Source of the DNA: Escherichia phage 4MG | Sequence record: NC_022968.1 | Strand: one strand, 5' to 3' | DNA length: 64,000 nucleotides | Shown: in pieces, positions 61,197 through 61,285 of the stretch | How the letters are laid out: each line of letters begins with the position of its first letter | Position numbering within the stretch: position 1 is the first letter of the stretch | Program-made: the position numbers and the translations under genes | The notes under the pieces: model-generated | Databases searched by the model: none | Told to the model about the DNA's origin: nothing | Seen by the model: the letters and a program-made list of their open reading frames with translations, nothing else

Positions 61197-61285
61197 TGGC
61201 GGTTCCTGAAGGATTCGAACCTTCGTTGTGGATTGCTCCAGGCAGGTTAACAGCCTGCTACCATCGGCCTCTCGGTCAAAGAACC
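61197..61285 (-). tRNA. long-variable-arm tRNA with Asn anticodon GUU
   Basis: 89 nt; all four stems pair; anticodon arm GCAGG-CTGTTAA-CCTGC; 17-nt variable arm with GNRA loop; T-arm GAAGG-TTCGAAT-CCTTC; G73. Confidence 0.55.

Follow-up and report, generated by a model that had tools for sequence, protein, structure and literature searches.

An 89-nt tRNA gene with the Asn anticodon GUU and a 17-nt variable arm lies at 61197-61285 on the minus strand of the window, by which we mean the whole stretch of 64,000 nucleotides analysed here. The long-arm structure of this tRNA(GUU) is firmly established and it is surprising; the long-arm (class II) tRNAs of bacteria are, by the textbooks, those for Leu, Ser, Tyr and Sec. 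To judge from sequence comparison, the gene probably encodes a working tRNA-Asn of class-II shape that would be charged by AsnRS, with an arm under selection, possibly against tRNA-targeting defences.

The gene was called by ARAGORN as tRNA-Asn(gtt) in the 64-kb window, and the Rfam tRNA model RF00005 matched it with 51 bits against a gathering score of 29, over model positions 1-71 of 71; the coordinates given by an earlier sequence-only reading of this DNA were exact, and so was its anticodon. The minimum-free-energy fold is the five-armed cloverleaf, having a 7-bp acceptor stem, a 5-bp anticodon stem with a 7-nt loop and a 5-bp T stem, all backed by covariation, and the split between acceptor and T stem is the regular 7/5. 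The fold energy is indistinguishable from that of shuffled sequences (z = -0.87) and thus uninformative, as is usual for tRNAs, so covariation was used as the support instead.

All parts were parsed on the minus strand. The 5' strand of the acceptor stem, GGUUCUU (G1, G2, U3 and onwards; 61279-61285), pairs with the 3' strand AGGAACC (61201-61207), including a U6.G67 wobble. Then come U8, G9, the D arm and A26 (61259-61278); the D arm ACCG-AGAGGCCGA-UGGU, with a loop of 9 nt, is of class-II type and has C11:G24 and G13.U22. The stems had been described earlier as perfect, which holds if G.U is counted as a pair and fails in the strict sense at G13.U22. The anticodon arm GCAGG-CUGUUAA-CCUGC (61242-61258) contains the anticodon GUU (61249-61251, from ARAGORN and the sequence), reading AAC/AAU, and the proposed loop CTGTTAA was read directly from the sequence. 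The variable region CUGGAGCAAUCCACAAC (61225-61241) is resolved by fold and parsing into one nucleotide (C), a 4-bp stem (UGGA/UCCA) closed by a GCAA loop and 4 unpaired nucleotides (CAAC), which bears out the 17-nt arm first noticed. The T arm GAAGG-UUCGAAU-CCUUC (61208-61224) had been described as Tyr-type and is in fact identical to that of E. coli tRNA-Tyr at 17/17 positions. The gene ends with the discriminator G73 and an encoded CCA (61197-61200).

Four further isolates, from Seunavirus or related to it, carry the same tRNA with 97-99% identity; Avunavirus phages, among them Av-05 and 18-1-2, have it with 79-82%, and the Salmonella jumbo phages 7t3 and SE_PL (348 kb) with 80%. The comparison with orthologous tRNAs of related phages, which the sequence-only reading had suggested, found GUU kept in every copy, from independent isolates and metagenomes. 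The acceptor stem is unchanged in GAP31, Av-05, 18-1-2, 7t3 and L043, and the other helices vary, with compensatory pair changes in the anticodon, variable and T stems; the variable stem UGGA/UCCA, for example, becomes GGGA/UCCC in GAP31. Covariation was analyzed in an alignment of 16 related sequences picked for a similar class-II D arm, most of them with the same arm layout. Pairing was seen in 95% of cells, and 20 of the 25 pairs had changes on both sides, including all 4 pairs of the variable stem. None of the 500 shuffles matched the observed percentage paired, the covariation score or the number of double-change pairs, and shifting the partners by sliding cut the pairing to 33-49%. Position 2:71 varies freely in these 16 relatives (GC 5, UA 5, CG 4).

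The window DNA belongs to a Seunavirus (Vequintavirinae) phage, and a 94% match to Cronobacter phage GAP31 covers its last 4 kb. About 26 tRNA genes, tRNA(GUU) among them, are densely packed in an array on the minus strand at 60179-63824; 23 of them were found by ARAGORN and three by Rfam, and a strong terminator-like hairpin stands after the last gene of the array. A separate tRNA-Tyr(GUA) is present at 62588-62675, and no second GUU or AUU tRNA was found by ARAGORN or Rfam in the 64-kb window, both as the sequence-only reading had it. Asn makes up 5.3% of the codons in the long ORFs of the window, with AAC predominant. Genes for RNA ligase 2, a CCA-adding enzyme and a putative phosphatase are present in GAP31, a close relative whose 1-50 kb, beyond the array, showed no tRNA annotation.

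A tRNA-Asp(GUC) called by ARAGORN (61116-61191, minus strand) lies 5 nt downstream of tRNA(GUU). In 38 phage records from other Vequintavirinae, including PVP-SE1, KB57 and FENT2, a second GUU scaffold of 85 nt occurs between tRNA-Asp and tRNA-Lys. In KB57 and FENT2 the body of this GUU tRNA is like that of E. coli tRNA-Asn, which has the same D arm (GUUC...GAAC) and the same anticodon stem (GCGGA/UCCGC in KB57), and a hairpin arm of 15 nt is added to it; the tRNA carries A2:U71 and U11:A24, and FENT2's own tRNAscan-SE annotation gives its isotype as Asn. Between the window and FENT2 the identity is 100% for tRNA-Lys and 97% for the 173-nt spacer, and it falls to 57% for the GUU tRNA and 59% for tRNA-Asp, the drop coming exactly at the GUU tRNA boundary as a sharp recombination edge. 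This comparison indicates that the GUU tRNA and tRNA-Asp(GUC) are swapped as one cassette between related phages, and both alternatives for the slot retain GUU, G73 and the long arm. The 173-nt upstream spacer, which has a tRNA 3'-like end, gave no Rfam match and no significant fold.

The distribution of such tRNAs was surveyed in viruses and in cells. A scan of IMG/VR with a long-arm pattern (CTGTTAA, a gap of 20-30 nt, GGTTCRAWTCC) gave at least 120 loci; 103 among the matches listed are tRNA(gtt) of 82-94 nt by ARAGORN, with highly diverse acceptor and D arms, and 13 of 14 that were checked scored above the tRNA threshold of Rfam, one of them with a partial match, the remaining one being missed. 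The unbiased viral scan, with the gap widened to 12-30 nt so that long and short forms were sampled together, gave 108 new loci with a gap of 12-15 nt, except one at 19 nt, and 12 long-gap loci; the long-arm share of the phage GUU tRNA genes sampled is 12/120, about 10% (95% CI 5-17%). The long-only pattern was also run on 185,579 cellular genomes and gave at least 120 loci; among the 120 matches listed, 95 are non-tRNAs and only about nine are long GUU tRNAs. Two or three of these nine are archaeal intron cases, and three lie inside clusters of 10-16 tRNAs, a location which suggests prophage or phage DNA. By these scans the long-arm GUU shape appears to be common in viruses and rare in cells, from which it is nearly absent. 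Canonical and long-arm GUU tRNAs coexist in 28 of 105 loci, with 11 pairs within 28 nt; adjacent pairs were considered as recent duplicates with an insertion and this was rejected, because their stem identity is 0.50 against 0.43 for random pairs.

The signatures of 97 distinct long-arm GUU tRNAs were compared with those of canonical phage tRNA-Asn and of phage tRNA-Ser, the frequencies being given here in that order. G73 occurs in 93%, 96% and 78%, U1:A72 in 62%, 64% and 0%, G2:C71 in 39%, 50% and 93%, C2:G71 in 39%, 40% and 3%, and A3:U70 in 24%, 12% and 82%. U1:A72 is typical of bacterial tRNA-Asn and is needed for the GatCAB route, not for AsnRS. A home-made naive Bayes isotype classifier, distinct from the tRNAscan-SE isotype models, was built on 1,602 phage tRNAs with anticodon and arm hidden; with a leave-one-out accuracy of 77.5% and a recall of 76% for true Asn, it called 66 of the 97 Asn, 8 Ser and 4 Tyr. 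The arm of the long-arm Asn tRNAs has a 3-4 bp stem and a 4-nt loop (GNRA in 40/90), followed by 3-4 unpaired 3' nucleotides in 58/90. Phage tRNA-Tyr has an arm with a similar stem and a similar tail (3 unpaired nucleotides in 34/53), and with a GNRA loop in 1/53, and the arm of phage tRNA-Ser has a stem of 4-7 bp with 0-1 unpaired 3' nucleotides in 77% and 3 or more in 7%. From the Asn-type acceptor signatures, the classifier and the non-Ser arm geometry we infer that the long-arm GUU tRNAs as a class are tRNA-Asn with an added arm; since most of the bodies are of Asn type, the arms would have been added to Asn scaffolds and not only inherited.

The window copy is, on its sequence, the least Asn-like kind of long-arm GUU tRNA, and its identity is ambiguous. 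It has the Asn identity nucleotides GUU and G73, with G1:C72 in place of the U1:A72 of bacterial tRNA-Asn, G2:C71, U3:A70, G9 and C11:G24, and a variable region of 17 nt where a class-I body has a loop of 4-5 nt and canonical phage tRNA-Asn 4-6 nt. The SerRS features long arm and G73 are present, as are the SerRS elements G2:C71 and C11:G24; G1:C72, G2:C71, C11:G24, G9 and G73 together are the E. coli serine set. The arm geometry, a 4-bp stem and 4 unpaired 3' nucleotides, is not of Ser type and agrees with the short variable stem of Tyr type (3-4 bp, about 3 unpaired 3' nucleotides). The A73 and GUA of tRNA-Tyr are absent, only G34 and U35 being shared, and the 8/4 or 9/3 split of allo-tRNAs is absent as well. 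Identity to E. coli tRNA-Asn is only 53%.

The sequence-only reading had proposed a Tyr-like scaffold repurposed for Asn, and this stood in part. The nearest E. coli tRNA is indeed tRNA-Tyr (blastn, 76.5% over nt 11-78, all 5426 genomes; 62/89 identical in a global alignment with a single 4-nt gap in the variable arm), and the arm geometry is Tyr-like. Against it, the closest non-GUU relatives are phage tRNA-Ser(GCU) at 72%, the D arm of the one in Pseudomonas phage PPSC2 being identical, and their anticodon is one transition from GUU (C35 to U). Isotype scoring, for which a confident Tyr call had been named among the refuting outcomes, gave a tie in the home-made classifier: Asn and Ser differ by 0.3 nat and Tyr stands 4.2 nats below, Ser being favoured by the D arm and Asn by the inner acceptor stem (4, 5, 68, 69). 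In bacterial tRNA-Tyr the main determinants are U35 and A73, and G73 blocks TyrRS, acting as its antideterminant, and LeuRS (PMC9976931). A strict Tyr origin of the window copy is doubtful.

As to charging, E. coli AsnRS knows its tRNA by the anticodon (G34-U35-U36) and by G73, a set that also works when moved into another body (PMC9976931). Serine identity lies in the long arm irrespective of the anticodon, with help in E. coli from G73 and from elements of the acceptor; SerRS, which reportedly reads the tertiary shape of the tRNA, is blocked by C2:G71 (PMC9976931). In the mechanism that we favour, the phage tRNA(GUU) would decode AAC/AAU and fill the only Asn slot of the co-transcribed minus-strand array, and host AsnRS would charge it via G34-U35-U36 and G73, a class-II body standing in place of the usual class-I body. 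The arm geometry would keep SerRS from making good use of it, and the arm may alter the shape of the anticodon stem and elbow such that nucleases cutting host tRNA-Asn no longer fit, which is our preferred reason for the arm. Charging of the window tRNA with Asn is, from its sequence, rather probable, and some serine charging would be a live possibility. AsnRS, which belongs with AspRS among the class II enzymes, comes to the tRNA on the side of the variable loop, where the arm might clash with it, and this is a point against Asn charging.

An unlikely alternative is a serine-accepting or dual Ser/Asn tRNA, by which Ser would be inserted at some AAC/AAU codons as mistranslation. SerRS, for which the anticodon does not matter and the long arm, G73 and features of the acceptor and D stems do, would therefore charge tRNA(GUU), and the window copy offers it G73, G2:C71, C11:G24, G9 and a 4-bp arm stem, together with a D arm identical to that of a phage tRNA-Ser(GCU). 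The classifier ties Asn with Ser here and ranks Ser first for the Av-05 copy. By Himeno et al. 1990, tRNA-Tyr was reportedly made to accept serine in vitro through G9, G73 and a longer arm, and relative to E. coli tRNA-Tyr the window copy has G9, G73 and an arm 4 nt longer. Independence of serine identity from the anticodon (PMC9976931) and the precedent of nev-tRNAs, which are charged by body and not by anticodon (PMC3333845), point the same way. However, the arm has 4 unpaired 3' nucleotides where phage tRNA-Ser has 0-1 in 77%, and 2:71 is free to vary in the 16 relatives where true phage tRNA-Ser keeps G2:C71 in 93%. The AAC codon is heavily used, with Asn at 5.3% of codons, whereas nev-tRNAs match rare codons; the array would be left without an Asn tRNA; and the sister scaffold that takes this slot in related phages is built on an Asn body, with A2:U71 and U11:A24.

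Improbable too is a working tRNA-Asn whose arm is a mere relic, left from an anticodon-shifted tRNA-Ser(GCU) or a Tyr-like tRNA captured by AsnRS. The nearest relatives, tRNA-Ser(GCU) and E. coli tRNA-Tyr, would fit this, as from Ser a single C35-to-U change suffices with G73 already there; the Asn identity set is small, being anticodon and G73 (PMC9976931), and anticodon shifts are a known route of tRNA evolution (PMC3923123). Most long-arm GUU tRNAs nevertheless have Asn-type bodies, the sister scaffold being one example, the variable stem is maintained by compensatory change, and the canonical and long-arm GUU tRNAs that stand together in 28/105 loci are not recent duplicates. Arm-bearing tRNAs of other isotypes moreover gather in the same phages, amounting to 67/892 in long-arm-Asn loci against 13/465 in canonical-Asn-only loci (p = 4e-4), and in the same loci the arm is borne by 11/44 of Thr(UGU) and 0/27 of Thr GGU/CGU tRNAs (p = 0.005). 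The arm thus appears to be kept by selection rather than as a relic, because it is added to Asn bodies, coexists with canonical copies, clusters with other arm-bearing isotypes and is isoacceptor-specific.

It is very improbable that tRNA(GUU) is not mainly a decoder and works against a tRNA-targeting nuclease, as decoy or as competitive inhibitor, or in another non-translational role; competition by overexpressed viral tRNAs was raised as a possibility in PMC12409363 and canonical and long-arm copies often coexist, yet the gene has the full architecture of a tRNA, in which the CCA is encoded, the 7-nt anticodon loop is intact and the T loop is conserved, and it has G73; it is also the sole GUU tRNA in this phage group. 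The remaining idea is that a tRNA-Tyr or tRNA-Ser copy mutated recently (a recently mutated copy had been raised in the sequence-only reading) or is decaying, or that position 36 holds a sequencing error; it draws on the single base that separates GUU from GUA (Tyr) or GCU (Ser) and on other odd tRNA-like genes in the array, but it is hardly credible and is refuted by homologue conservation and covariation, since GUU and the arm are conserved at 79-99% in three lineages (Seunavirus, Avunavirus and jumbo phages) with compensatory changes, GUU is in every homologue, all helices covary and the discriminator is G73, not A73.

Under the reading of a working tRNA-Asn with a selected arm, the case for a role in defence evasion is circumstantial. 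PARIS AriB has host tRNA-Asn(GUU) as a secondary target and cuts it between 40 and 41, and the T5 tRNA-Lys, -Thr and -Asn together neutralise PARIS, phage tRNA variants rescuing infection (PMC12409363); P2-OLD cuts tRNA-Thr(UGU), and Thr(UGU) is also an AriB target. Around the AriB 40/41 site, positions 39-41 read C-C-U in the window tRNA and U-C-C in E. coli tRNA-Asn. The distributions at positions 39-41 are similar in the long and the short phage tRNA-Asn, so the AriB site says nothing about the arm. An experimental link was sought through T5 tRNA-Asn and rejected; the T5 copy is 78 nt and not long-armed, and it therefore gives no experimental link between the long arm and PARIS rescue.

A broader and only tentative proposal is that phages have evolved, for tRNAs of class I in all cells, a class-II architecture specific to viruses, which serves as a structural counter-defence against nucleases, with charging still by the anticodon. 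Such a set would hold Asn(GUU) above all, together with Thr(UGU), Cys and CAU tRNAs, and its architecture would combine a Ser/Tyr-like D arm, a short GNRA-capped variable hairpin and 3-4 free nucleotides. If true, the tRNA arms race would have a new layer, different in kind from the point mutations of the anticodon loop described so far.

Comparison with known systems places the window tRNA as follows. With canonical tRNA-Asn(GUU) (E. coli asnT, phage T5) it shares GUU, the loop CUGUUAA, G73 and the 7/5 architecture; the class shares with canonical phage tRNA-Asn the mix of U1:A72 or G1:C72 and the mix at 2:71, and the place in a phage tRNA array beside tRNA-Asp is also common to both. It differs from canonical tRNA-Asn by its 17-nt variable arm (against 4-6 nt), its class-II D arm and its identity of 53%. 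With bacterial tRNA-Tyr it shares the identical T arm, a similar D arm and anticodon stem, G34, U35, the short stem and the 3-4 unpaired 3' nucleotides, whereas it has U36 and not A36, G73 and not A73, G9 and an arm longer by 4 nt; the arm loop is commonly GNRA in the long-arm Asn class (40/90) and rarely so in phage tRNA-Tyr (1/53). With tRNA-Ser, especially tRNA-Ser(GCU), it has the long arm, G73, G2:C71, C11:G24 and the PPSC2 D arm in common, the differences being GUU, the 4-bp stem with 4 unpaired 3' nucleotides and the Asn-like acceptor interior (4, 5, 68, 69).

The nematode nev-tRNAs (Hamashima 2012, PMC3333845) likewise combine class-II bodies with class-I anticodons and are conserved by lineage; they are derived from tRNA-Leu, charged with Leu against their anticodon, weakly expressed and matched to rare codons (PMC3333845), whereas the phage class has mostly Asn-like bodies, a common codon and bacterial hosts. 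The allo-tRNAs and (8/4) phage tRNA-Ser/His (Mukai 2017, PMC5389517) are also irregular long-arm tRNAs, found in bacteria and in phage clusters, some allo-tRNAs having non-Ser anticodons and G73/U73 (PMC5389517); their stems are 8/4 or 9/3 and their D arms tRNA-Sec-like, in contrast to the 7/5 of the window tRNA. The nuclease-resistant phage tRNAs (T5 Lys, Thr and Asn against AriB, Thr against P2-OLD, Tyr against the PtuAB of retron-Eco7) are phage copies of a tRNA cut by a defence, and the window tRNA shares with them differences at the AriB site in the anticodon stem. The resistance described for them is by point changes of the anticodon stem-loop or a shorter stem, whereas the window tRNA has an added variable arm, and in papers on PARIS, P2-OLD and PtuAB no added variable arm was found as a resistance feature. 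A literature search including reviews of tRNA identity and non-canonical tRNAs, with thin coverage of subscription journals, found no description of a long-arm phage tRNA-Asn.

Long-arm tRNA-Asn genes form a large set enriched in viruses, to which the window tRNA belongs. A tRNA-Asn of this shape, conserved, frequent among phages and nearly absent from cells, would break the textbook class-II rule in a lineage-specific manner, and it offers a direct test case for AsnRS and SerRS sharing or dividing a substrate that carries both sets of signals. The GenBank phage records label the long-arm GUU genes as plain tRNA-Asn; this applies to dozens of records, including those of phage therapy candidates, in which any serine misincorporation would go unnoticed. 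If the arm does protect against defence nucleases, it would represent a structural form of immune evasion and would help to explain why large phages carry tRNA sets of their own.

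The long variable arm was not confined to tRNAs with the GUU anticodon, and among the matches listed for the viral loci of the long-arm GUU scan (L010–L129, from IMG/VR) it was also found in tRNA-Thr(UGU) (11 of 44), tRNA-Cys (9 of 34), CAU tRNAs (10 of 56) and tRNA-Ile(UAU) (3 of 14), with example loci being L031, L035, L037, L040, L049 and L052. The layout of the arm in these tRNAs is identical to that of the long-arm GUU tRNAs and the class-II D arm is similar, and the long-arm gene often has a canonical tRNA of matching anticodon as its neighbour. A Ser-like tRNA with a GUU anticodon was also located in a bacterial genome contig (L334, 3976–4064, minus strand); it begins with GGAGGUG, has a variable stem of 6 bp and G73, and is solitary, lying outside any tRNA cluster. 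This gene is a candidate for a genuine cellular case of an anticodon shift from Ser to Asn.

Other genes of unusual form were found on the minus strand of the window. The 79-nt tRNA(CAU) at 60179–60257, called by Rfam only (45 bits), has an enlarged D arm, and its counterpart is annotated in the Cronobacter phage GAP31 and in PVP-SE1 as a tRNA-Met of 82 nt; the gene may encode either tRNA-Met or tRNA-Ile2. A tRNA-like gene at 62264–62333 (Rfam tRNA 38 bits; ARAGORN type '???', anticodon 'gt') has an anticodon loop of 6 nt and G73 without CCA; it is kept in GAP31, KB57 and the Enterobacter phage FENT2, and the GAP31 counterpart is annotated as pseudo tRNA-OTHER. The tRNA-Ser(UGA) at 61548–61636 was folded with an acceptor stem of 8 bp, a T stem of 4 bp, a long D stem and U73, and it scored 34 bits against the Rfam tRNA-Sec model, whose threshold is 47. 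It resembles the (8/4) type of tRNA-Ser that Mukai et al. 2017 described in phages.

GAP31 (L361), a close relative, encodes RNA ligase 2 (3527–4573), a putative phosphatase (5801–6295) and a tRNA nucleotidyltransferase (49079–50332), which together are a tRNA repair and maturation kit beside the tRNA array.

tRNA-Lys and the GUU tRNA are separated by a spacer of 173 nt (61286–61458, minus strand). Its conservation in both GAP31 and FENT2 is 97%, and its 3′ terminus, ...GAUCCCGCCA, resembles a tRNA 3′ end. The Rfam search of this spacer gave no match and its fold was not significant (z = −0.56). The spacer is possibly either a small stable RNA or the remnant of a tRNA that has decayed. Comparison of the window with FENT2 (L009) showed a sharp recombination edge at 61285/61286 (2780/2781 in FENT2), with 97–100% identity upstream of it and 57–59% identity starting at the first nucleotide of the GUU tRNA and lasting to the end of tRNA-Asp. 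The tRNA genes are swapped as cassettes.

The tRNA-Lys(UUU) at 61459–61545 (minus strand; Rfam tRNA 50.5 bits, no ARAGORN call in the window) has the D arm GCC-AAGCGGCGACGUAUGUCUAA-GGC, whose loop measures about 20 nt, and the FENT2 copy of the gene is 100% identical. Since tRNA-Lys(UUU) is the main target of PrrC and PARIS, this gene is a further reshaped copy of a defence-targeted tRNA.
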